A stretch of DNA of 47,379 nt from a virus (lineage: Duplodnaviria; Heunggongvirae; Uroviricota; Caudoviricetes), in IMG/VR virus record IMGVR_UViG_2721755497_000004; one strand, written 5' to 3'. The translations under genes were made by a program, and so were the position numbers. The notes beneath the pieces are model-generated. The model ran no database searches. It saw only the letters and a list, made by a program, of their open reading frames with translations, and was not told where the DNA came from. This document shows, piece after piece, positions 8,596 to 36,483 of the stretch (positions are counted from its first letter, which is position 1; the number at the start of each line of letters is the position of its first letter).

Positions 8596-9759
8596 TCAGA
8601 ACTGATAAGTCATCCCAACAGCAACGATATTATCTGTCGCAATACCGGCTTTCTGGGTAAATTCGCTTTCATCAATCAGGTTAATTTTATAATCAACATA
8701 AGTGGACATATTTTTGTTAAAGTAATAAGTCGCACCGACATCAATATATTTAACCAGATCCTGGTCGCCATGGTTCACACCACCAACCATAACATCCTGT
8801 CCGCGGGACTGCAGATAAGCCAGAGATGGACGCAGGCCAAAATCGAACTGATACTGAGCAACCATTTCAAGGTTTTGTGCTTTATCCGCAACCCCGGTAT
8901 CACCAAAAGTGGTCATATTCTGGGTTTCGGAATAAATTGCAGCCAGATACAGATTGTTTGCATCATATTTAAGGCCAGTCCCCCACATCTCAGCATACTT
9001 ACCTTTTGCAACGCTGCCGGAATCAACGGACACTTCTTTTTCCGTCACATCCCCCGTTAAAGGATCTTTGACTTCAATAGTTTTGCTACCATTCAGGCCA
9101 TTAACCTGCTTACCTGTACGATCTGACTTAGTATACGCTGCCACAAAACCAAAACCATCAAACTCATAGCTGGCAGAGAAACCATATCCATCACCATTAG
9201 ACTTCTGGAGGTCATCTCGCTCATTTTTTCCCTGATACTGGGCTGCAAAGTTAAGACCATCCACCAGTCCGAAGAAATCTGTATTGCGGTAAGTCAGCAC
9301 TCCGGAAGTACGAGCAGTCATGAAGTTATCAGTCTGCGTCCAGCCATCGCCACCAAATTCTGGCAGAACGTCTGTATACGAACCGACATCATAAGCGATA
9401 CCATAATTACGCCCGTAATCAATGCTACCTAAATCAGCGAATTTCAAACCGGCAAATGCCAGACGGGTTTTATTGCCTGCCGTCCCTTCAGACTCGGCCT
9501 TATTACCTGAAAACTGATATTCCCAGTGACCAAAACCTGTCAGTTGATCATTGATCTGAGTCTCACCTTTAAAACCAAGACGTGCATAGGTCTTATCGCC
9601 ATCATCACCTTTATCGTCTGAGAAGTAATGGAGAGCAGTTACACGACCATAAAGATCCAGCTTATTACCATCTTTATTATAAACTTCTGCTGCCTGAGCC
9701 CCCGCAGCAAACATCACTGCCACTGCAACAGCAGAAAGTGCCACTGTCATTTTTTTCAT
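8596..9759 (-). CDS. OmpC/NmpC/Lc-family outer membrane porin (phage moron)
   Basis: 387-aa ORF with cleavable signal peptide (…[10 protein letters not shown]), enterobacterial general-porin motifs and C-terminal ...GMTYQF; flanked by AT-rich DNA; inserted between tail genes M and L. Confidence 0.9.
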
Positions 9760-24403: not shown

Positions 24404-24946
24404 ATGAACAGATACTCTAAACTTCAAATTCAATTACATTGGCTGACTCTCGTATTAATAGCTATAGCCTGTGCTGCAATGGAACTTCGAGGTTTGTTTC
24501 CTAAAGGGTCTTCCTCCTATTTGCTTATGAGAGAAACACATTACAATGCTGGTATATTTATTCTTCTACTGATGATAATAAGAGTAATTATCAATAATAA
24601 ATATATAACACCAGCTATTACGCCGCCCCCACCTGCATGGCAAATGATATCAGCCAAATTCATGCAAACCCTGTTATACATATCTTTTTTGGTGTTACCA
24701 GTATCAGGACTTGCAATCATGGTTTTTGGAGGTAAAGCATGGAGCCTTCTGGGGATTGATATTCCCACTTTCGCTAACACCGACGGAGAAGTAAAATCCG
24801 TAGCCAAAACTATTCATGAATCACTTGCAAATATTGGTTATTTATTAATCACACTCCATGCTGGCGCTGCATTAATTCATCATTATATTCAGAAGGACAA
24901 TACACTTGTCAGAATGCTCCCTGAGCACCAGCATGATAAAAAGTGA
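24404..24946 (+). CDS. cytochrome b561 family protein (CybB-like, moron)
   Basis: 180-aa ORF with conserved b561 motifs (…YSKLQIQLHWL…, …HESLANIGYLLITLHAGAALIHHYIQKDNTLVRMLP), four predicted TM helices, AT-rich, RBS AAGGGA. Confidence 0.8.
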   Translation: MNRYSKLQIQLHWLTLVLIAIACAAMELRGLFPKGSSSYLLMRETHYNAGIFILLLMIIRVIINNKYITPAITPPPPAWQMISAKFMQTLLYISFLVLPVSGLAIMVFGGKAWSLLGIDIPTFANTDGEVKSVAKTIHESLANIGYLLITLHAGAALIHHYIQKDNTLVRMLPEHQHDKK

Positions 24947-25020: not shown

Positions 25021-25527
25021 TTAATACGTCTCTGTCAGATAACTTGAATCTCTGACTGAATTATAAATGCGTTCACATGTCAATCCAGCGCGGTAATTTT
25101 CGTCAGCGCGTTTAGCATAATATCCAGCTTCTTCTGCAAGGCTTCCGAGCATGTCGGCGAGCATTGCGACGTTGCTTTCGATTGTTTTGCTTCTGACGGT
25201 AGCGGCAATATTTGCGGTATGCTCTGCCGCTTCCAGTCTGACGGTAAGCTTTGTTGCTTTTTCCCGCAACTGACTAACAGTGGCAGATAAACCAGCAGCA
25301 GTAGCATTGGCTTTGACAGCTTTCTCTTGTGCATCTTTGACAGCCTCATCACGGGCAACAATACGCCCCTGTTCAATCATCCTGACAGCAATCTGCGTAT
25401 TAACAATCTGCGACGACTCTTCACTGTCCCGCTCAGCCCATTTCGTTTGCCATTCTCTTTCACACCAGACATTTCCAGCAATAAATGAGCCAATTGACAG
25501 CAATACAATGGCCACAAGCTTAATCAA
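25021..25527 (-). CDS. Rz: Rz-like i-spanin
   Basis: 168-aa ORF after the endolysin: N-terminal TM segment then long coiled-coil; apparent TTG start overlapping the endolysin stop. Confidence 0.55.
   Translation of the reverse strand: MIKLVAIVLLSIGSFIAGNVWCEREWQTKWAERDSEESSQIVNTQIAVRMIEQGRIVARDEAVKDAQEKAVKANATAAGLSATVSQLREKATKLTVRLEAAEHTANIAATVRSKTIESNVAMLADMLGSLAEEAGYYAKRADENYRAGLTCERIYNSVRDSSYLTETY
25080..25334 (-). CDS. Rz1: Rz1-like o-spanin lipoprotein embedded in Rz (+1 frame)
   Basis: Embedded ORF with lipoprotein signal MHKRKLSKPMLLLLVYLPLLVS-C and Pro-containing mature part; start codon uncertain. Confidence 0.45.
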   Translation of the reverse strand: MHKRKLSKPMLLLLVYLPLLVSCGKKQQSLPSDWKRQSIPQILPLPSEAKQSKATSQCSPTCSEALQKKLDIMLNALTKITALD

Positions 25528-26057
25528 TTATCTATCCCCCAGCACGTCAGCATGCTTTCCTGGTCACGCCGTGATACCTGACCAGAGCAGTTGTTTGAGC
25601 GAATACGGCAGTCTTTGCCACCATCCTTAATCCACCAGCGAATCGCCTCGCAGGCACCTTTACGATCACCGGCATTAAGCCGCTTATAAAACGTCGACGG
25701 GAAACACTTACCTGGGCCAATGTTGTACGGACAGAACGACGCGATACCTGCTTTCTGCGGTTCAGTCAGCGGTACCTGGATATTTTCCTCCACCCACGCC
25801 AGCGCCTTATTGCGCTCGATGGCGTTCACCTGCTCGCATTTTGTCTTCGTCAGTTTCATGCCAGGAACGACAGGCTTACCGTCCACCATTGTGGCACCAC
25901 GGCAGATGGTCCAGATACCCGTACCATCACGGTATGCTGTTATGTGGTTGCCTTCCTTTTCATCCAGAAACTGGTCGAGAATTTCAGGCGCAGAAGCCCC
26001 TGCGGCAATCAGCGCCAGAACGGCAGCCGACAGGCCGTATCTGATTTTTGTGTTCAT
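25524..26057 (-). CDS. R: SAR endolysin (T4-lysozyme-like muramidase, phage 21 R type)
   Basis: 177-aa ORF; N-terminal Gly/Ala-rich signal-anchor-release segment (LSAAVLALIAAGASA); catalytic E-x8-D-x5-T spacing in EGNHITAYRDGTGIWT. Confidence 0.9.
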   Translation of the reverse strand: MNTKIRYGLSAAVLALIAAGASAPEILDQFLDEKEGNHITAYRDGTGIWTICRGATMVDGKPVVPGMKLTKTKCEQVNAIERNKALAWVEENIQVPLTEPQKAGIASFCPYNIGPGKCFPSTFYKRLNAGDRKGACEAIRWWIKDGGKDCRIRSNNCSGQVSRRDQESMLTCWGIDN

Positions 26058-26174
26058 GGGGATTTATCGTTTTTTAATCTCTTGATATGTTAAGTATATA
26101 ATCCAACACTCATGGCAGGTCTCATAAACATATCCCTTGAGACACAACAGATAACAACAAATGAGGCCTTATAA

Positions 26175-26489
26175 ATGAACAGTAAAGAAAGTTTGCGCAG
26201 AAGATTTTTACAACTAATGACAGAAAACGTTAAATCAGAGTTACTTCTTCAGATGGCGGACAATAACGAAGTAACGAGCAGCATTCTTGCAGACCCTTAC
26301 GGTAAACTCTCACATAAAACGCTTGATATTATTACCACAACATTAACACCACTGATGCTTCAACGGCTGAAACATAATATCAACGCATGGGTTAATGAAG
26401 AATTAAGTCCTCCCTGCTTATGGGATTCTCGTTACGCATGTCAGCAAAAAATGCGAATTTTCAACTTACTATCACCAAAGCTCAGGTAG
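26175..26489 (+). CDS. hypothetical protein (opposite-strand moron between holin and endolysin)
   Basis: 104-aa AT-rich ORF with RBS TGAGG; occupies a 687-bp insertion separating S and R. Confidence 0.45.
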   Translation: MNSKESLRRRFLQLMTENVKSELLLQMADNNEVTSSILADPYGKLSHKTLDIITTTLTPLMLQRLKHNINAWVNEELSPPCLWDSRYACQQKMRIFNLLSPKLR

Positions 26490-26744
26490 CCATAAAATCC
26501 TGCCCTTCATGGCATACAGGATATCAATGGAATCACAATGACCGCCTCTTGCACAGCTGTGTCCCTGACACCCCGACAACTCAAATTTTCAGTATCTTCT
26601 GCTATCTAAAGAGAAAGCATACAAAGTCAAGGACCTTTCATCACATCCTGTTATTGATTGCCTGTTACCTTTGCATACCTCAGGGAACGTTTTTTCAGTT
26701 AGAAATATTCATTTTACAACCAGTTCGTATTTTTTATTCATCGA

Positions 26745-26960
26745 CTACTCTCCCCGCGCCGCCTTACGACGGTCCTCTTTAATCTTGAAGTACAGGTTCG
26801 TCAGGTACGTTAACAGACCAAACAGCAGACTCCCCAGCACGCCTATTGCCGCCCACTGAGACGGGGATACCCTGTCCAGCAACTGCAGAAACCAGTATCC
26901 CGTCCCCACCGCAGACGTGGTGTATGACACACCTGTTGTGATTTTTTCCATCTGGTACAT
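26745..26960 (-). CDS. S: class II pinholin (phage 21 S type) with dual-start motif
   Basis: MYQMEK...[50 protein letters not shown]; Met1/Met4 dual start; RBS GGGAGG. Confidence 0.8.
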
Positions 26961-27037
26961 ATCCCCGCCTCCCGTTAACCGGAAGCGCACGATAATAAAA
27001 GACCACCGCGATATGCTGGTGGCCTGTGCGTCATGTA

Positions 27038-27343
27038 TCACAGCATGGTTGCTGGCTCCGGCTGCAGAACATCATTTGGTTGTTCCTCACCACCGGTTTG
27101 TGCCTCAGGTCGTTCGCTGCTGTTTTCCACCGGAGAATCTGCTGTATTCTCACCATCCCCTGCCTGTGGCGCAGATGCCCCCTCAGCAGGTCCGATAAGC
27201 TCATCCAGAATCGCTTCCACATCCGCATCAATCTGAGCCTCAAACGTTTTACGGATAGACGCTTTCAGCGTCCCGCGGACTTCTTCAGTGCGCAGCGCTG
27301 ACTTCACTGCATCAGCAGTGACCAGTTTTTTCATTTCTGTCAT
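27038..27343 (-). CDS. hypothetical acidic protein
   Basis: ~101-aa ORF from the [13 protein letters not shown]et, highly acidic C-terminus; between nanS-p-like gene and holin. Confidence 0.4.
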
Positions 27344-27657
27344 GGTTTTTTCTCGCTGTAAGATGTGATTACGGGAGGGACGTGGACTTTGGCTCTGCTG
27401 ACTGACCGGCACTGATTTTTTCAGCCGCCATGGCATCAATCTTTTTACAGATGTAGTTTCGGATGATTTTATAACCGCCACTAACCAGATACAGTGCACA
27501 CACAGCCGTACAGAAATACAGCTGTATTTGCTGAATAAATGACATATACCCTTACCTTTAATATTGACTGGAGAAACAGTTTTAAGGTAAAAAATTACTG
27601 AGTTAATGGTTATCTCTTATTGCAAGCATTGTATCCCTTTATGGGTTGTGAATATCA

Positions 27658-27700
27658 CCCGCCAGTCAACAAATGGCTCTTTGACCGGCGGGATTTTTTT
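27658..27700 (+). terminator. plus-strand intrinsic terminator (hairpin plus T7 run)
   Basis: CCCGCCAGTCAA...TTGACCGGCGGG stem followed by GATTTTTTTAT; no annotated plus-strand gene upstream. Confidence 0.5.
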
Positions 27701-27707
27701 ATCCTGC

Positions 27708-29642
27708 TTACGCGTTATTCACTTCCACCACAATGCTGTCAATCAGCACCGGGTATGTTGCACCATTAGTGATATCGGTCACACGCAACTTGTCTGCCGT
27801 AAAAATTCCGACAGTGGACTGCGACAGCATGAACGGCGTCCCGTCCTGACCATCAATGACCGGCGTCACCTCAATACTGTTGTTACCGGCGAAACGGAAG
27901 CCCAACGTATGCCACTCGTTGTCAAATGCACCGAATGACCCCAGTTTCATGTTTTGCGCCGTATCGCCCTTGTGGTACATCACGTTAAGGTCTGTCGCAT
28001 CGCTCTGAACGTAAAAAGATGCCAGCAGGTTATGACCAGCATTACCTTCCAGGGTAACCCCTTGTGGCAGGGCAGAAACCGGCCAGTACAGCGCCAGTGC
28101 GTACTGATTAGCCGTAAGCGCGCCATCAAGTTTAAAACGACAATTGACAAGGCCGCCTTTGCCCAGCAGGTCGGCACCATTACCGGCATCATGTTCCAGG
28201 TACCAGGAGGATTTTCCCGTCGCTTTGGTAAGCTTCATCGCCTTACCTCCACTGGCTCCGGCATCATCCACAACAGCGGCACTACCTCCGCCAGCCCCCC
28301 AGCCCTGTGGAGTCAGTTGTCCTTCCGAATCGCTGGCCCTGTATGCAAACAGTGTTGTCATCCCGGTAGTTTCACCCGGTGATGTTGATGGAGTGTCAGG
28401 TGATGGCTTCTCATCCGGTGGTGTCACGGCCTGCCCGCCCAGCAGTTCAGCCGTGCGCCCTGCATGGAGCAGAATAGAGGAGGCCAGACGGTCAGAAATG
28501 ATGCCCCTGCGTGCCCATGAACTGAAATGGCTGTCACGCTGTGTCGAGACAAAACTGCCCTGGGTACGGGATGCCGCACCGTAATACCCGACAGCCACAA
28601 TATCCGGATCTTCCGTCGGAGCATTCGTTGGCGTGTTCTGTCCATTCTCATCCGTCAGGAACGGTACAAAGAAAATATTCTGAGTTTCCTTGCCTTTGTA
28701 GCCACCGTATACCGCCTCATATTTATCGGTGCCAGCGTTTTTCCAGTAATACGTGGTATCACCACAAATCCACGGTACCGTGCCAGCATTTCCACTCACG
28801 CACTGCGCAGCAAGCGGAGACAGGTCGGCTCTGAACTGCTGAACCATGGCAGTGAATAAACCATTATGCTGCTGACTTCCCGATGCAAGGTCTGCCTCTC
28901 CCTGCATCCAGACCACAGCCAGAAGTTTGTTTTTCGGGTTCTTCGCCAGCGCGACTTTGGTGCGGCTTACCAGGTCCTGATACAGAGGTTTACCGACTCC
29001 CCAGCGTGAAGAATCAGCGGAAGCACCGCTGGCCTCACTGAATGAACCGTCCGGCCCGGTGGTGAATGCTGACCCGCCACGGCAACAGGGCACCAGAAGT
29101 ATCCCGGCATTCTGCGGGATATAAGGCAGCAGTTTTTTGGCAATATGCAGCCCCTGACTCACACAACCATACTGCCCCTTGTTCAGGTCAGCTTTTGGGT
29201 GGTTTATCCCGCTCATGTCCTGCACATCATGCAGGCAGTGGTCTGCCGGAATGATGTCATTGTATTTACACGGCGTACCACCTGGCGTGACCGTGCTGCG
29301 GCGTGCCAGTTGCTTAATCCGTGGGTCCGGGCGGTCAAATGAATCCGGTAACGGAAGCCCTTCACCATAGGCCATGCCATTTGACTGCCCCGCCAGAACA
29401 ACAACAAAGTAATATTCTGGCTCACTGACTGTGCTCATTACCGTACCGCTGTCACCCGACGGCTTCACCACAACAGGCGTGGTGACATCACCCTCCGCTG
29501 CAATCGCCTGCATCAGGGTATAAGGCGTAATAGCAACCGGACTGCCAAACGGCTGCCAGCCTTCCTTCAGTTTTTGTGACAGTCGCTCCGCAAGCTCTGA
29601 CGGTGAAGCCGCCCTGACCACACCATAATGCTTAAATGTCAT
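27708..29642 (-). CDS. NanS-p-like sialate O-acetylesterase (SGNH/DUF303 hydrolase with C-terminal domain)
   Basis: ~645 aa from the MTFKHYGVV Met (RBS GGGAGGAG); GQSN motif; the position upstream of the lysis genes matches where I recall prophage nanS-p genes sitting. Confidence 0.65.
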   Translation of the reverse strand: MTFKHYGVVRAASPSELAERLSQKLKEGWQPFGSPVAITPYTLMQAIAAEGDVTTPVVVKPSGDSGTVMSTVSEPEYYFVVVLAGQSNGMAYGEGLPLPDSFDRPDPRIKQLARRSTVTPGGTPCKYNDIIPADHCLHDVQDMSGINHPKADLNKGQYGCVSQGLHIAKKLLPYIPQNAGILLVPCCRGGSAFTTGPDGSFSEASGASADSSRWGVGKPLYQDLVSRTKVALAKNPKNKLLAVVWMQGEADLASGSQQHNGLFTAMVQQFRADLSPLAAQCVSGNAGTVPWICGDTTYYWKNAGTDKYEAVYGGYKGKETQNIFFVPFLTDENGQNTPTNAPTEDPDIVAVGYYGAASRTQGSFVSTQRDSHFSSWARRGIISDRLASSILLHAGRTAELLGGQAVTPPDEKPSPDTPSTSPGETTGMTTLFAYRASDSEGQLTPQGWGAGGGSAAVVDDAGASGGKAMKLTKATGKSSWYLEHDAGNGADLLGKGGLVNCRFKLDGALTANQYALALYWPVSALPQGVTLEGNAGHNLLASFYVQSDATDLNVMYHKGDTAQNMKLGSFGAFDNEWHTLGFRFAGNNSIEVTPVIDGQDGTPFMLSQSTVGIFTADKLRVTDITNGATYPVLIDSIVVEVNNA

Positions 29643-29812
29643 TGCTCCTCCCGGACGGGATAATATGTTAACTAAGATGAGAGAGCAGGTGACAGCCCCG
29701 GCCGCATGAAAGTTCTGAGAGGGAAGTGCTGCCTGCTGCTCCATTGCACAGATTAATTACTGTCTGGTAGTATTCAGTGGCTGATTAGAATACTTCACAT
29801 TTTGTTATTTTG

Positions 29813-29847
29813 TGCAGCCCGTTACCATTCGTAGCGGGCTTTTTTTG
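29813..29847 (+). terminator. plus-strand hairpin plus T7 run
   Basis: AGCCCG...CGGGCT stem followed by TTTTTTT. Confidence 0.45.
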
Positions 29848-29850
29848 TCC

Positions 29851-29876
29851 ATAAAAAAGCCCCTCCGGAGAGGGGC
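29851..29876 (-). terminator. minus-strand intrinsic terminator (GCCCCTC-CGGA-GAGGGGC plus U6)
   Basis: Perfect 7-bp GC stem preceded on the plus strand by AAAAAA; lies downstream (minus sense) of repeat element A. Confidence 0.55.
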
Positions 29877-29907
29877 ATACTAGCTATATATCCATTTATC
29901 ATTGGCT

Positions 29908-30037
29908 GCGTGGTGCCGGGTGCCTCCCGGTGAGCTCAGCCTGGTGTCACTGAGCCCGCACATTCTCGATCCAAGTTATCGTCGGAGATAATACCTGATA
30001 CACCAGACGCCCCTCCGCACAGGGGGATTCACCACGC
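29908..30037 (-). repeat. structured repeat element A (closing helix GCGTGGTG/CACCACGC)
   Basis: 5' arm plus CCGGG-TGCCT-CCCGG hairpin ... variable core ... CCCCT-CCGCAC-AGGGG hairpin plus GATT plus 3' arm; strand assigned from the flanking terminators. Confidence 0.7.
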
Positions 30038-30265
30038 GCAGAGAAGGATACTGAACACTATTTTCTCCAGGCAATATGCAATAACATGAAGTGTGAGATG
30101 ACTTACAATTATAAAAAACAGCCTACAGAATACTCCTAAATAAAGCCATATCAAAATGAGTAACACAAAAAGGAACCAGGCAAAAATTTACGAGCAGGTA
30201 TTATCCAGCAACAGTTCAGACGCCATAACTTATTGCCGATAGCTACCATCAATAATTTCTTTCAT

Positions 30266-30289
30266 AAAAAAGCCCCTCTGAAGAGGGGC
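30266..30289 (-). terminator. minus-strand intrinsic terminator (GCCCCTC-TGAA-GAGGGGC plus U6)
   Basis: Near-identical copy of the element A terminator, downstream (minus sense) of element B. Confidence 0.55.
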
Positions 30290-30316
30290 TGACATACGCA
30301 TTTGCTTTCATCATCA

Positions 30317-30439
30317 ATATGGCGCCGGGTGCCTCCCGGTGCTCCATAACTGATTAATATGGAACGCGGTTTCATTCAGTTGCATTCATGAATAACACTC
30401 TAATCAGTCCGCCCCGCCGCTTAGGGGGATTCGCCATAT
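30317..30439 (-). repeat. structured repeat element B (closing helix ATATGGCG/CGCCATAT, compensatory change)
   Basis: Same architecture as A; terminal helix sequence differs from A but remains perfectly complementary. Confidence 0.7.
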
Positions 30440-30574
30440 AAATTGAAAGTACTGAACACATCTGTCACAAACAATATGCAATTGTATGAATTGTGAGATT
30501 ATTATCAATAACACAAAATTACAGCTCTAGTACATAAACAGCAGATTAAACAAGAACAACAAAAGTATTGAATT

Positions 30575-30700
30575 GCACGGTGCCGGGTGCCTCCCGGTGA
30601 ATTCTGCAATGACCAGACAGAATCCGCAACTTGCTACTAACGCTAATGCGACCAAGCCTAACAGTCATTATGCCCCTCCGCACAGGGGGATTCACCATGC
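30575..30700 (-). repeat. structured repeat element C (closing helix GCACGGTG/CACCATGC, one mismatch)
   Basis: Same conserved hairpins GGTGCCGGGTGCCTCCCGGTGA and CCCCTCCGCACAGGGGGATTCACCA; different variable core. Confidence 0.7.
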
Positions 30701-30829
30701 GCTAAAAAAATACAAAACGTCACGTCACTCTGACAATACGAAGCACCATAAAATGTGAGTTATTTATCAATTCTTAATTCTGGTTACAGGAATATTCCGA
30801 ATCAAATCTTTAAAAAAAGAAATTCAAAT

Positions 30830-30932
30830 GCATGGTGCCGGGTGCCTCCCGGTGAACAGACCGTCCGTGATACCAGTCGGCAACACAGGAAATTAATGGT
30901 ATCACCCCACCGCACAGGGGGATTCACCATGC
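30830..30932 (-). repeat. structured repeat element D (closing helix GCATGGTG/CACCATGC)
   Basis: Same conserved hairpins; shorter variable core containing its own 9-bp hairpin GTGATACCA/TGGTATCAC. Confidence 0.7.
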
Positions 30933-31121
30933 AGGCGTTTTCTTAGCAAACTAACTGCGCGCCCGGCAACTCCCAACCACATAAAACGTGGAGTTTGTAG
31001 CATTTATGCACATAACTCACAGGGGTTATCTTAAAAAAAGCTGACCATGCTTCCCCGGCAACGCAATAACTTTATTCCCTGAAGTGGCATCCCCCGTATT
31101 GTCGGCAGGCTCAAAAAGGAG

Positions 31122-31143
31122 CCAGTCATCTGAGGATGACTGG
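31122..31143 (-). terminator. hairpin CCAGTCATC-TGAG-GATGACTGG with nearby U-run on minus strand
   Basis: 9-bp perfect stem; the minus strand continues CTCCTTTTTGA. Confidence 0.35.
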
Positions 31144-31323
31144 AAAAAGGAAAGATAAAAAATTATTCATCATACAACCTTCGTTGCAGGGGAGAATCCT
31201 GCGGTGCAGCAACATACAAAAACATAAGCCAACTAACAATATGCAGGCATAGCATTTTCGGATTTTGTTATATGGCACGGTAACTGAATGCTTACCTGAT
31301 ATACAGTCCGGTATAAAGTTGCA

Positions 31324-31344
31324 AAAAACCGCCAGTTAAGGCGG
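31324..31344 (-). terminator. minus-strand intrinsic terminator (CCGCC-AGTTAA-GGCGG plus U6)
   Basis: 5-bp GC stem followed on the minus strand by TTTTTTG. Confidence 0.5.
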
Positions 31345-31587
31345 CATTCAAACAGACAACAGGATTTTTTCGTAATTTTAACAACTTCGGGGTGGCGCAT
31401 CGTCAGCCCCTGTCAGGAAGTACCAGAGCTCCCACCAACAATATCCCCCCATTCAGCGTTATCAAACACAGCACAGAAACTATCAATGTTTGCTGTTACA
31501 GTTAGGGAAAAAACGATAAATACGCCACAGGCTCTTTTTGCTGTGAAGTAAAAACTGATCTGAAAGACTGCTCATCATTTATTTTGC

Positions 31588-31665
31588 TGGACCGTCACCG
31601 GGGACTCGAACCCCGCATTTTCAACATAAAAAGGTTGATGCTCTTTCCTGATGAGCTAGTGACGG
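31588..31665 (-). tRNA. tRNA-like gene with 8-nt anticodon loop (possible unusual tRNA or pseudogene)
   Basis: 7-bp acceptor stem CCGTCAC/GTGACGG, encoded CCA, D arm GCTC/GAGC, T arm CGGGG-TTCGAGT-CCCCG, but anticodon arm TCAAC-CTTTTTAT-GTTGA has an 8-nt loop. Confidence 0.45.
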
Positions 31666-31667
31666 CA

Positions 31668-31742
31668 TGGTTGCCTTGCTGGATTTGAACCAGCGACCTG
31701 GCGATTATGAGTCTCTCGCTCTCACCACTGAGCTAAAGGGCC
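31668..31742 (-). tRNA. tRNA with CAU anticodon (Ile2/Met-like), acceptor and anticodon stems imperfect
   Basis: GGCCCTTTAGCTCAGTGG...CTCATAA...GCTGGTTCAAATCCAGC...CCA; D and T arms canonical; 3 terminal acceptor pairs and 2 anticodon-stem pairs mismatched; one nt short. Confidence 0.55.
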
Positions 31743-31782
31743 GGGAACAGAATAATAATGGTGCGTAATTAATTCTGCAATC

Positions 31783-32841
31783 TCATCCCTTCTGGCTGAC
31801 TAAATCCTGAACTTCCCTGACCGTCTGCTCAAAACGCTCAGTATCCAGCTCAACGCCAATCGCACGACGCCCCAGTGCCAGCGCCGCTTTGACTGTCGAA
31901 CCCGACCCCATGAAGAAATCCGCAACCAGGTCACCCGGACGACTACTCGCTCTGATTATCTGCTGCAGCATTTCTGCCGGTTTTTCGCACGGATGTTTCC
32001 CGGGATAGAACTGCACCGGTTTATGCGTCCACACATCGGTATATGGCACCTGCGCCGTCACGCCAAAATACCGCCGCAGATGCTTATATTCACACTGCAG
32101 TTCCGCATACTGTCGGTTCAGTAAGGTATACGCGGCAACCAGCTGGTGGTGGGGTTTTTCCAGTTCACCGCGTTGATGCTTTTCTTCTGCCACCCGGGCA
32201 AACAACGCCTGTAATTTCAGATAATCGCGTTCATTCGGTAACTGCCACTGACTGGTACTGAACCAGTGCGACACCATGTTTTTCTTTCCTGTGGCATCAG
32301 CAATCTGTTTTGCCGTTATCCCCAGAGCGGCACGCGCATCACGAAAGTAAGATATCAGCGGGGCCATCACATGCTGTTTCAGTGCCCTGCCCTTCGCCTC
32401 ATAGCCATCATCTTTCGGGCGATACGGTCCCTGATAATGTTCCGCAAACAGAATGCGCTCTGTGGCCGGGAAATACGCACGCAGGCTTTCCTTGTTGCAC
32501 CCGTTCCAGCGTCCGGATGGCTTCGCCCAGATGATATGGTTCAGCACATTAAAGCGTTCACGCATCATGATTTCGATGTCGGATGCCAGGCGATGCCCAC
32601 AGAACAGGTAAATGCTTCCCTCGGGCTTTAATACCCGCCAGAAGTGCGCCAGACACTGGTCCAGCCACTTCAGGTAATCATCATCGCCATTCCACTGGTT
32701 ATCCCAGCCATTGGGTTTTACTTTAAAGTACGGCGGGTCCGTGACTATCAGATCGACAGAGTTTTCAGGTAAGGTCTGGATAAATTCCAGGCAGTCAGCG
32801 TTGATTAACTCACAACTGGATATTTTTACAGTATTAAGCAT
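31783..32841 (-). CDS. DNA N6-adenine (or N4-cytosine) methyltransferase, beta class
   Basis: 352-aa ORF with DPPY catalytic motif (LIVTDPPYF) and C-terminal SAM-binding FxGxG (DFFMGSGST). Confidence 0.85.
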   Translation of the reverse strand: MLNTVKISSCELINADCLEFIQTLPENSVDLIVTDPPYFKVKPNGWDNQWNGDDDYLKWLDQCLAHFWRVLKPEGSIYLFCGHRLASDIEIMMRERFNVLNHIIWAKPSGRWNGCNKESLRAYFPATERILFAEHYQGPYRPKDDGYEAKGRALKQHVMAPLISYFRDARAALGITAKQIADATGKKNMVSHWFSTSQWQLPNERDYLKLQALFARVAEEKHQRGELEKPHHQLVAAYTLLNRQYAELQCEYKHLRRYFGVTAQVPYTDVWTHKPVQFYPGKHPCEKPAEMLQQIIRASSRPGDLVADFFMGSGSTVKAALALGRRAIGVELDTERFEQTVREVQDLVSQKG

Positions 32842-32980
32842 GGATCATTAAGCCTGTCTCTGATAGGCTCATTCTGCTTTTGCGCAAAGCAGTGGGCCTG
32901 AGGTTTGCTTGTGATCCCGATGCATGAGCAGATGGCTGGTGAGTGCCTCTAACACCACCAGCCGCCCATTTACCACAAAT

Positions 32981-33004
32981 AAAAAAGCCTTCAGGACTGA
33001 AGGC
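32981..33004 (-). terminator. intrinsic terminator (GCCTTCAG-GA-CTGAAGGC plus U6) overlapping the stop of the 65-aa ORF
   Basis: Perfect 8-bp stem followed on the minus strand by TTTTTTAT. Confidence 0.45.
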
Positions 33005-33188
33005 GTCTGTAACAACCGAACTGATAGTCTGCCAGACCCGCCATAACAAGCTGGGTCAGTATTAACTGGCAGCGCTCGCGTGAAAGGTAAGTATTCTGCG
33101 CAATCTCCCCGACTGTCGCCGGTTCGGTGACACTTAATTCATTAAACACCACTCTGGCGGTTTCGGTCATATCCTGCTGTTTTAGCAT
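32991..33188 (-). CDS. hypothetical small protein
   Basis: 65 aa from the MLKQQDMTE Met with RBS AAGGGA; first gene after tR'. Confidence 0.4.
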   Translation of the reverse strand: MLKQQDMTETARVVFNELSVTEPATVGEIAQNTYLSRERCQLILTQLVMAGLADYQFGCYRRLQS

Positions 33189-33310
33189 GTCTTTTTCCCT
33201 TTTCCGGTTAACGTGACACACCAATAACTCTTGTCGAAAAAGCCAGCAAGCTGAAAGACCGGTATTCACCACCACCAGCGCGTTTAACGTACTGGACCGA
33301 TTTCAGTCAT

Positions 33311-33332
33311 AAAAAACCCGCCAGGCGGCGGG
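33311..33332 (-). terminator. tR'-like late terminator (CCCGCC-GCCT-GGCGGG plus U6)
   Basis: Strong intrinsic terminator about 80 nt downstream of the Q-like gene stop. Confidence 0.6.
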
Positions 33333-33375
33333 GTGTAAAAACTCTTCTAACGTCAGGCATAAAACGCCCATTGTT

Positions 33376-33403
33376 AGAGCAAAATTACCACAGATTCCGG
33401 AAA
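33376..33403 (-). promoter_or_regulatory. pR'-like late promoter (TTGATT -16 nt- TGgTAATTT extended -10)
   Basis: Sigma70-like elements between the Q-like stop and tR'; would give a ~60-nt transcript ending at tR' unless antiterminated. Confidence 0.4.
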
Positions 33404-33414
33404 AATCAACAACC

Positions 33415-34236
33415 CTATCGCGTTACCCTCTTCAACTGCCACTCTGCCCATGCCTCTGCAATATCAAACCGGACCACCAGCGTGTCATAGAATTGCTTAA
33501 CTGTTTTTTCCCATGAAGCGCGTGTTATCTGATTTGTCACCTCACATATGGCATCAAATGCCTCCGTTGAAGGTAATCTTTCATAGCCACGCCCACCACA
33601 ACGCTGACAGTTTCTGAAAACCGGCATACCTCGTTTTTCAGACTCTTCACGATGAATGGCAACACCGCGCCCACGGCAATCTTTACAGGCAGTGGAGACC
33701 TCCCCCTTTCCACCACACTCCGGACAGGCAACTTTTACCACCTCCCTGACTTTTTTCCATTCCTCCCAGTAAGACGGATACACGCCTTTTGTACACTTTG
33801 CCCATACTGGTGGCTTACCATCCGGATACTGAATCTTGTTTGTAAAAATCTCGCTTTCAATAAATTTTTTTCCGTGACAGCATGGGCACTGTTTTTTGCT
33901 CGCCGCGCTCCGGGCATAATCCTCAAACGCATACGAAGCCATAATGCGCATCACTACCGGTTTTATTTCTGCCGGAAGTTTTCTTAACGCTGCCATCCGA
34001 TCACACCGACTGAGAGCGTATTCTGCCAGCAGTTCTGTTGCCCGCTCCCTGTCATTCATACTGATGCCCATTTTCCCAAGGAACGCAGAAAACCCCATCT
34101 CAGCCCGATTCTGTGTCATGCCCTGCGCGGCCATCACATCAGTGATACTCAGCGCATCTTTTGACGTTGAGGCCGATGCATCGGTCAGGCAAGGGGATTT
34201 TGGGGAGTAGTATTTCGGTAAATCTTCCAGTTTCAT
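33415..34236 (-). CDS. late antiterminator Q-like protein (QuuQ-type, multiple CxxC zinc-ribbon motifs)
   Basis: 273-aa ORF directly upstream of pR'/tR' and downstream of rusA (ATGA-coupled); four CxxC motifs. Confidence 0.6.
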   Translation of the reverse strand: MKLEDLPKYYSPKSPCLTDASASTSKDALSITDVMAAQGMTQNRAEMGFSAFLGKMGISMNDRERATELLAEYALSRCDRMAALRKLPAEIKPVVMRIMASYAFEDYARSAASKKQCPCCHGKKFIESEIFTNKIQYPDGKPPVWAKCTKGVYPSYWEEWKKVREVVKVACPECGGKGEVSTACKDCRGRGVAIHREESEKRGMPVFRNCQRCGGRGYERLPSTEAFDAICEVTNQITRASWEKTVKQFYDTLVVRFDIAEAWAEWQLKRVTR

Positions 34237-34607
34237 TTTTTGACCTGCTCTTCATGCATTATGGGGTAAATCTTCACCCCCATACGTCCACCAGATACTG
34301 GCTGACCACGAACGATATTGGTTTCATCAAACTGCTCATCGTCCATTAACACTCCCGCATGCGTCAGCGCATCCAGCGGTGCTTTCAGGATATTGTCCAG
34401 GTCGCGACGACGCTTATCCGGTGGCTCTGCAATCACCTTTATCGCCAGCCTTCCGGACAGGCTTAATTTCAGCCGCTGCTGGCGAACAATAAGCGCCACA
34501 GCCCGGCGATAACGCTTTCCCTCCTCCGAGATAAAATATGTGCTGCCACGGCGTCGCCAGTAAGTGTTCACCGTCGGCGGGTAAGGTAAAACCAAATCTA
34601 TGAGCAT
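34233..34607 (-). CDS. rusA: Holliday junction resolvase RusA
   Basis: 124-aa ORF; RusA signature incl. ...PDKRRRDLDNILKAPLDALTHAGVLMDDEQ... Confidence 0.85.
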   Translation of the reverse strand: MLIDLVLPYPPTVNTYWRRRGSTYFISEEGKRYRRAVALIVRQQRLKLSLSGRLAIKVIAEPPDKRRRDLDNILKAPLDALTHAGVLMDDEQFDETNIVRGQPVSGGRMGVKIYPIMHEEQVKK

Positions 34608-36116: not shown

Positions 36117-36272
36117 TTACTCCTCAGGTTCGTAAGCTGTGAAGACAGCGACCTCCGTCTGGCCGGTTCGGATTCGTACCTCGCAGAGGTCTTTCCTCGT
36201 TACCAGTGCCGTCACTATGACGGTTAAACAGATGACGATCAGGGCGATTAACATCGCCTTTTGCTGCTTCAT
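36117..36272 (-). CDS. hokD: Hok-family type I toxin
   Basis: 51-aa MKQQKAMLIALIVICLTVIVTALVTRKDLCEVRIRTGQTEVAVFTAYEPEE, canonical Hok; nested in the longer mok-like frame starting at 36329. Confidence 0.85.
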   Translation of the reverse strand: MKQQKAMLIALIVICLTVIVTALVTRKDLCEVRIRTGQTEVAVFTAYEPEE

Positions 36273-36329
36273 AGCCTGCTTCTCCTTGCCTTTCGGCACG
36301 TAAGAGGCTAACCTAGATTTGCCGTTCAT
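36117..36329 (-). CDS. mok: Mok-like overlapping reading frame
   Basis: 70-aa frame (MNGKSRLASYVPKGKEKQA…) extending upstream of and in frame with hok. Confidence 0.45.
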   Translation of the reverse strand: MNGKSRLASYVPKGKEKQAMKQQKAMLIALIVICLTVIVTALVTRKDLCEVRIRTGQTEVAVFTAYEPEE

Positions 36330-36483
36330 AGATTGAGCCTCAGATTAATGTTAAGCGTCTTGCAGGACGCGTAATGTTAACTGGGGCTTTTCTCTATCTG
36401 CCTTTGGTGTTCATGCCTGAGACAGATAGCCTCAAGCACCCGCAGCCATTCTACTTAACTCCCGTTACCTCGCCAATATAAAA

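Follow-up and report, generated by a model that had tools for sequence, protein, structure and literature searches.

The late region of a 47,379-nucleotide (nt) stretch of viral DNA (IMG/VR record IMGVR_UViG_2721755497_000004, Caudoviricetes; the whole stretch is called the window in the following) is best explained, with a probability of about 80 %, as the moron region in the Q-dependent late operon of a Shiga toxin gene (stx)-negative, lambda-like prophage of rodent-associated Escherichia coli, in which a backbone of the Stx2 phage type carries an array of small RNA (sRNA) genes of the STnc100 family as cargo and functions by the mechanism proposed below. The region is real and had been read correctly in an earlier analysis of the bare sequence, the original prediction, and it is largely known: the moron site, its sRNAs, the STnc100 family and stx-free prophages with nanS-p (PMC10462455) are all in the literature. 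A modest new point is a cargo slot whose only cargo is a set of four distinct STnc100 subtypes and whose junctions suggest recombination in the conserved cores of these units.

The genes or elements for Q, a tR'-like terminator, a small open reading frame (ORF), a DNA methylase, two tRNA-like genes, a noncoding gap, a NanS-p-type esterase, DUF1378, DUF826, holin, lysozyme and an Rz-like protein follow each other on the minus strand, transcription proceeding from high to low coordinates (Table 1). The gene order listed in the original prediction was recovered with every named element present. One small detail was corrected: the esterase start at 29744, the start of the longest ORF, was replaced by the start at 29642 given by the Prokaryotic Genome Annotation Pipeline (PGAP). 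The acidic ORF before the lysis cassette was identified as DUF826, and the neighboring DUF1378 gene is missing from the earlier list. As at known moron sites, a Q-family antiterminator sits immediately upstream of the cargo and a holin-endolysin-Rz cassette downstream of it. The esterase is predicted from an N-terminal DUF1737, a SASA catalytic domain and a C-terminal DUF6645, the domain set of NanS-p.

The resemblance of this layout to the cargo region of Stx phages, as proposed in the original prediction, turned out to be a gene for gene collinearity with the Stx2a phage Stx2_EH1910 (LC567834). This phage and the Stx2d phage Stx2_112808 (LC567830) have in common with the window the order ydfU, rusA, Q, small ORF, methylase, tRNAs and, further on, STnc100, convergent element, nanS-p, DUF1378, DUF826, holin and lysozyme. 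Amino acid identities to Stx2_EH1910 were 89 % for RusA, 91 % for Q, 97 % for the small ORF, 92 % for the methylase, 69 % for NanS-p, 60 % for DUF1378, 46 % for DUF826, 100 % for the holin and 87.5 % for the lysozyme. In a megablast of positions 27000-34300, 300 of 50,697 phage records matched; named Stx-converting phages made up more than half of these 300, and no record covered 80 % of the query. Alignment of the whole region revealed a sharp two-block match flanking the argO-stx2AB segment. The first block, 33331-31588 of the window, was 91.5 % identical on the DNA level to Stx2d and Stx2a phages, among them Stx2_112808 (locus L001, 3001-4753); it begins exactly at the tR' hairpin and stops where the second tRNA has its 3' end. 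The second block, 30038-27198 (L001, 6277-9132), had 69 % identity and reached from the last STnc100 unit across nanS-p and DUF826. The unmatched middle consists of 1549 base pairs (bp) in the window opposite 1523 bp with argO, stx2A and stx2B in Stx2_112808.

Toxin genes were absent from the slot, as the original prediction had expected. A tblastn search with Stx1A, Stx1B, Stx2A and Stx2B against the window gave a best E value of 0.42, outside the slot, and a sole match in 29643-31587 with an E value of 9; the same queries on an Stx2a phage, as positive control, yielded E values of 0 to 1e-31. A blastn search with the stx1 and stx2 operons had no match in the slot either, and a degraded stx in the slot was ruled out by these empty searches. 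The window thus does not carry the stxA and stxB genes between Q/tRNA and lysis genes that define an Stx-converting phage. The two DNA blocks and the protein collinearity support its status as an stx-negative relative of Stx phages, and the differing cargo of related phages supports, together with published work (PMC4104026), the other explanation offered at the outset, a general cargo site. Both alternatives hold and are compatible with each other.

Four units, named c1 to c4, matched the Rfam family STnc100 (RF02076) over the full length and above the gathering cut-off of 47 bits. An 18-nt core motif, CACCGGGAGGCACCCGGC, occurred four times in the window and never in 100 shuffled sequences. 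The cores, consisting of a closing helix and two hairpins, were 76-100 % identical among the units. Four pairs of the 8-bp closing helix exhibited compensatory changes and none was broken in an alignment of 11 sequences. Between the hairpins lie inserts which were only 19-36 % identical among the units of the window, against 78-83 % to orthologs elsewhere: c1 corresponds to unit a of the E. coli M11 prophage and to the unit of strain C9, c2 to unit b and c3 to unit c of M11, and c4 to the unit behind stx2B. Judged by these identities, the four units are distinct subtypes, not duplicates.

Unit c4 is orthologous to the one STnc100 copy that Stx2 phages have just after stx2B. In PMC12370729 this copy is located downstream of the stx2 operon at a distance of 75 nt, and according to PMC12711010 it overlaps the Hfq-bound sRNA EcOnc27. 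With c4 as query, blastn retrieved 352 phage records, Stx1 and Stx2 phages among them, nearly always with one site per record. The c4 insert was 80 % identical to the Stx2d copy. The 5' part of c4 resembled c3 (68 %) more than the Stx copy (48 %), thus c4 looks chimeric on the sequence level. Judged by its distribution, c4 is shared backbone, and only a 625-bp leader and c1-c3 are swapped-in material. The structured repeat array that the original prediction had seen in the toxin slot was therefore partly reassigned: leader and c1-c3 occupy the slot, but the array is not a simple toxin replacement because its last unit belongs to a backbone also carried by Stx phages.

Related prophages carry varied cargo at this one position. 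Stx2 phages have argO and stx2AB with or without iraM, Stx2_EH1910 specifically stx2AB and iraM. In E. coli M11 the site contains four tRNAs, the same leader, a c1-type unit, a TolA-like gene and c2- and c3-type units, in strain C9 the leader, one STnc100 unit and two TolA-like genes. That morons insert 3' of pR', at a site with convergent sRNA pairs, had been described by Tree et al. (2014, PMC4104026), with Sp5/stx2 as the example and seven other Sakai prophages alike. Strain A39 (locus L250, 3601-3627) has a three-unit array, produced by a deletion with its two ends within the conserved cores of c2 and c3; this deletion is direct evidence that the cores recombine. The nanS-p gene of A39 is frameshifted. 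As a tentative generalization, STnc100 may be a modular cassette of a structured clamp and a hypervariable insert, whose cores serve as crossover points that move morons including stx; arrays might then be collections of regulatory RNAs of differing specificity that successive cargo exchanges have left behind. We regard this extension as doubtful at present.

Anatomy, homology, lack of stx, subtype structure and recombinant relatives are shown by the sequences; promoters, read-through by Q, Hfq dependence and any targets belong to a proposed mechanism, which distinguishes two states. In the lysogen, transcripts from pR' would stop at tR', and the STnc100 units would be transcribed from their own sigma-70 promoters and act, by analogy with homologs, as Hfq-associated base-pairing sRNAs, the subtype-specific insert determining the target range. 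After induction, RNA polymerase modified by Q would read past tR' and the internal terminators, as general lambdoid biology suggests, and this read-through would express the methylase, the tRNAs, the sRNA array, NanS-p and the lysis genes. Homologous recombination between lambdoid prophages, with the STnc100 cores as crossover patches, is the probable origin of the mosaic. For strain EDL933, PMC5331693 reports 11 STnc100 copies transcribed without induction, one verified by northern blot. RpoD was bound at the STnc100 copies of Salmonella LT2 (PMC10794520). EcOnc27 was Hfq-bound in the cross-linking and analysis of cDNA (CRAC) data of Tree (PMC4104026, PMC12711010). PasD, a structural homolog of STnc100, is an abundant Hfq-bound sRNA in data from the ligation and sequencing of interacting RNAs (RIL-seq) (bioRxiv 10.64898/2026.05.13.724894).

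Several observations weigh against this explanation. The Hfq association, the discrete transcripts and the targets of c1-c4 are extrapolated from homologs. The candidate pR', read by eye, was not flagged by the consensus promoter scan, whose criteria it fails, and promoter-like sites were not enriched in 26900-33500 (7 versus 7.6 in shuffled sequences). In the promoter scan only c3 had a strong consensus promoter, a site at 30508-30481 with 10 of 12 consensus positions. The terminator scan found no G+C-rich terminators for c1 and c2, which may not be independent sRNA genes. Complementarity of the inserts to the window itself was limited to 10-11 nt, the level expected by chance, and self-targeting by the variable inserts was rejected on this basis. 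The exchange may have gone in either direction, with stx lost or never present.

The main rival takes the STnc100 units mainly as cis elements of the late transcript or the DNA, possibly as processing or stability elements, insulating terminators around morons or conserved homology patches for exchanging modules, rather than as trans-acting sRNAs. The position of units beside cargo genes (behind stx2B, on either side of the TolA-like gene, ahead of iraM) fits such a role, and so do the missing terminators of c1 and c2, the homology breakpoints and the A39 deletion at conserved cores, and the conservation of a structured scaffold instead of a single-stranded seed. However, homologs bind Hfq and are present as discrete RNAs without induction, and the compensatory changes reflect selection on RNA structure, not on DNA homology alone. 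We therefore consider a mainly cis-acting role unlikely, though it is the strongest of the alternatives.

A decayed former Stx phage, in which an ancestral stx2AB was deleted and the gap refilled, would make the region a remnant and not a separate stx-free lineage. The backbone is on both sides 69-92 % identical to Stx2 phages, and lesions in both tRNA genes indicate some decay. Yet no stx remnant was found in protein or DNA searches, the remaining prophage was annotated as intact, and in strain 8178 a relative of 96.7 % identity combines the same array with intact tRNAs. The slot content has orthologs in the stx-free prophages of M11 and C9 and was thus imported as a unit, which makes a decayed Stx phage quite improbable.

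In the ileZ-like tRNA the 3' acceptor strand reads AAGGCA instead of AAGGGCC, leaving four of the seven acceptor pairs, and this tRNA is probably defective. The Lys-type tRNA carries compensatory stem changes and an anticodon loop of 8 nt (CUUUUUAU); the same loop lesion is present in A39. Neither gene combines the 7-pair acceptor stem and the 7-nt anticodon loop of a functional tRNA. Since the relative in strain 8178 keeps both tRNAs intact, with a normal 7-nt CTTTTAT loop, comparison of these sequences indicates that the lesions are recent and lineage-specific and not designed, the extra T being a slippage in the T run. A purpose-built tRNA with a four-base anticodon was rejected on account of the normal loop in this relative. 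An exact-pattern scan of IMG/VR for the 8-nt-loop tRNA pattern found no other copy.

The gap between the tRNAs and nanS-p has a G+C content of 41-46 % versus 52-57 % in the flanks. Terminator-like hairpins were enriched in 26900-33500, 19 versus 7.0 ± 2.5 in shuffled sequences. The leader as a whole had no match in the phage collection; only its 3' half (31271-30963) is widespread in lambdoid prophages of E. coli. Two sRNA-like units were noticed in the leader on the minus strand (31122-31236 and 31322-31465), each combining two promoter-like hexamers with a hairpin and an intrinsic terminator behind them. Of the two, the downstream unit shows about 81 % conservation in about 490 E. coli genomes, where it lies upstream of STnc100 units of the c1 type, and it has no Rfam match.

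Unannotated small proteins encoded in the 1.9-kb gap are a very improbable alternative. ORFs of 42-63 amino acids exist, and three of them start inside the conserved core, two with MVNPPVR and the c3 equivalent with MANPPKR. Against a coding role, PGAP calls no coding sequence (CDS) in the gap, the gap ORFs had no significant Pfam or PHROG match (best E value 0.007 over 13 residues), ORFs of the leader had no match in Pfam or PHROG, and frames and lengths are not conserved among units or relatives. A mini-ORF of 15 amino acids in the leader likewise lacks a conserved frame, being shifted by a 1-nt indel in C9. Small proteins in the gap were rejected for want of a significant family match and a conserved frame.

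Opposite c4 lies a short plus-strand element at the position of the anti-sRNAs AsxR and AgvB, aligning with the homologous site of the Stx2d phage and of M11. A search of 29640-29900 against Rfam had no match to AsxR (RF02703) or AgvB (RF02702) at E values up to 10, and an identity with either was ruled out, as Rfam had no match in the window or in the Stx2d phage. The best Rfam matches were all below threshold, RybB with 21 bits (cut-off 40) and Esr41 with 15 bits (cut-off 102).

How common such arrays are was estimated from sampled loci with the core motif. The sampled IMG/VR loci comprised 91 single units, 12 pairs, 2 triples and 2 quadruples, the sampled species-representative genomes 82 singles, 5 pairs, 3 triples, 4 quadruples and 1 quintuple. 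As singles dominate and triples and quadruples are few, the four-unit array is uncommon but not unique. According to PMC5331693, none of the 11 STnc100 copies of EDL933 is adjacent to another, and the passages on STnc100 read in five of the eight papers naming it contained no description of tandem arrays. A recent local tandem duplication of one sRNA gene, as the head-to-tail order on one strand at distances of 233-398 bp might suggest, is hardly credible and was refuted by the subtype identities given above, with inserts far closer to orthologs in other prophages than to each other, pointing to an old, assembled paralog set. Five short tandem STnc100-like units (about 95-125 nt matched, about 125-370 bp apart) were observed on the megaplasmid pAPP145_2 of Pantoea sp. 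App145 (locus L060, 1100-2050), with a strongly covarying closing helix. Outside the late regions of prophages, too, the STnc100 scaffold occurs widely among Enterobacterales.

Table 1 Features of the late region and its cargo site (positions in the window)
Feature	Position	Strand	Basis and remarks
Q antiterminator, 273 amino acids, quuQ type	33415..34236	-	Pfam PF03589, E 2e-51
Candidate pR' promoter	33382..33409	-	Predicted, read by eye; TTGATT, 16-nt spacer, TGgTAATTT (extended -10)
tR'-like intrinsic terminator	33311..33332 (hairpin 33332-33317)	-	Terminator scan; CCCGCCGCCTGGCGGG + T6
Small ORF, 65 amino acids	32991..33188	-	phrog_331, E 1e-37; PGAP CDS
N6/N4 DNA methyltransferase	31783..32841	-	PF01555, E 4e-45
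ileZ-like tRNA, anticodon CAU	31668..31742	-	ARAGORN; Rfam 47.6 bits vs 72.5 in Stx phages
tRNA-Lys(UUU)-like gene at argN position	31588..31665	-	ARAGORN anticodon 'tttt'; PGAP tRNA-Lys
Noncoding gap, 1945 bp	29643-31587		No gene annotated by PGAP
Noncoding leader, 625 bp	30963..31587	-	Intrinsic-terminator hairpins 31345-31328 and 31143-31122
STnc100 unit c1	30784..30962	-	RF02076, 76.6 bits; short insert, no G+C-rich terminator; ortholog of M11_a and C9 units
STnc100 unit c2	30530..30729	-	RF02076, 100.5 bits; no terminator; ortholog of M11_b
STnc100 unit c3	30260..30465	-	RF02076, 99.6 bits; terminator 30290-30271; ortholog of M11_c
STnc100 unit c4	29847..30067	-	RF02076, 133 bits; terminator 29876-29859; ortholog of post-stx2B unit (EcOnc27 region)
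Convergent element, about 59 nt, terminator-ended	29789..29847	+	Plus-strand terminator 29816-29840; faces c4
NanS-p-type sialate O-acetylesterase	27708..29642	-	DUF1737 + SASA + DUF6645; start per PGAP
DUF1378 small protein	27369..27545	-	PF07125, E 3.5e-28
DUF826 acidic protein	27038..27343	-	PF05696; PGAP CDS
Lysis cassette	25021..26960	-	P21-type holin 26745-26960 (PF04971), lysozyme 25524-26057 (PF00959), Rz-like DUF2514 25021-25527

The small ORF behind tR' had a weak match to a TrmB-like helix-turn-helix and is followed by a terminator at 33004-32987. In the wider context, the window was 100 % identical to a chromosomal prophage of the mouse isolates E. coli M3 and M1. Of 5426 complete E. 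coli genomes, 17 contained at least 80 % of 29700-31800, many of these 17 being rodent isolates, and one IMG/VR viral contig carried this region with 93.6 % identity. As annotated by PGAP, the window in its entirety is a complete-looking lambda-like, long-tailed prophage with an immunity region of RacR/YdaS/YdaT type, dicB, xis and int. An OmpC-like porin gene (8596-9759, minus strand) is inserted as a separate moron within the tail genes, flanked by the gene for minor tail protein L and by the next tail gene upstream. A cytochrome b gene (24404-24946, plus strand) is located beside the lysis genes. The minus strand also carries hokD with a sok RNA (Rfam, 110 bits; 36117-36441) and, near the tail fibre, a second Hok/Gef gene (2381-2491).

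The window presents base by base a late module of Stx phages that circulates toxin-free in rodent-associated commensal E. coli. A tRNA gene delimits the exchanged segment at one end and a conserved sRNA core at the other, which provides a context for the gain and loss of stx. As a prophage with a cargo consisting entirely of regulatory RNA it adds an example and leaves the current understanding unchanged.

Compared with known systems, the site equals in position that of Tree et al. in the Sakai prophages Sp3-Sp17 (PMC4104026), between Q/pR' and a conserved downstream ORF, and in both an STnc100/EcOnc27-type unit faces a short, terminator-ended convergent RNA. The window differs in having four same-strand STnc100 units where the Sakai sites have one, and in a convergent element unmatched to AsxR and AgvB of Rfam. 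Relative to PasD of enteropathogenic E. coli and the STnc100 family of Rfam, the units have the same closing helix and two conserved hairpins, but c1 and c2 lack the terminator hairpin. EDL933 distributes its 11 copies one per prophage, whereas the window has four subtypes in tandem. Among stx-negative phages, the induced coliphages vB_EcoS-640R1 and 813R8 (ON470612, ON470619) have Q (92 % amino acid identity), holin and lysozyme in common with the window; both are likewise stx-free with STnc100 units in the slot. Unlike the window, 640R1 has no methylase, nanS-p only as a DUF1737 fragment, and a slot of two STnc100 units and iraM. In comparison with the Stx2 phages, the window is without argO, stx2A, stx2B and iraM and has the 625-bp leader and three extra STnc100 units instead; its second tRNA is of the Lys(UUU) type where Stx2 phages have argN, and its head and tail genes are lambda-like and of a long-tailed phage, unlike those of Stx2_EH1910 and Stx2_112808.

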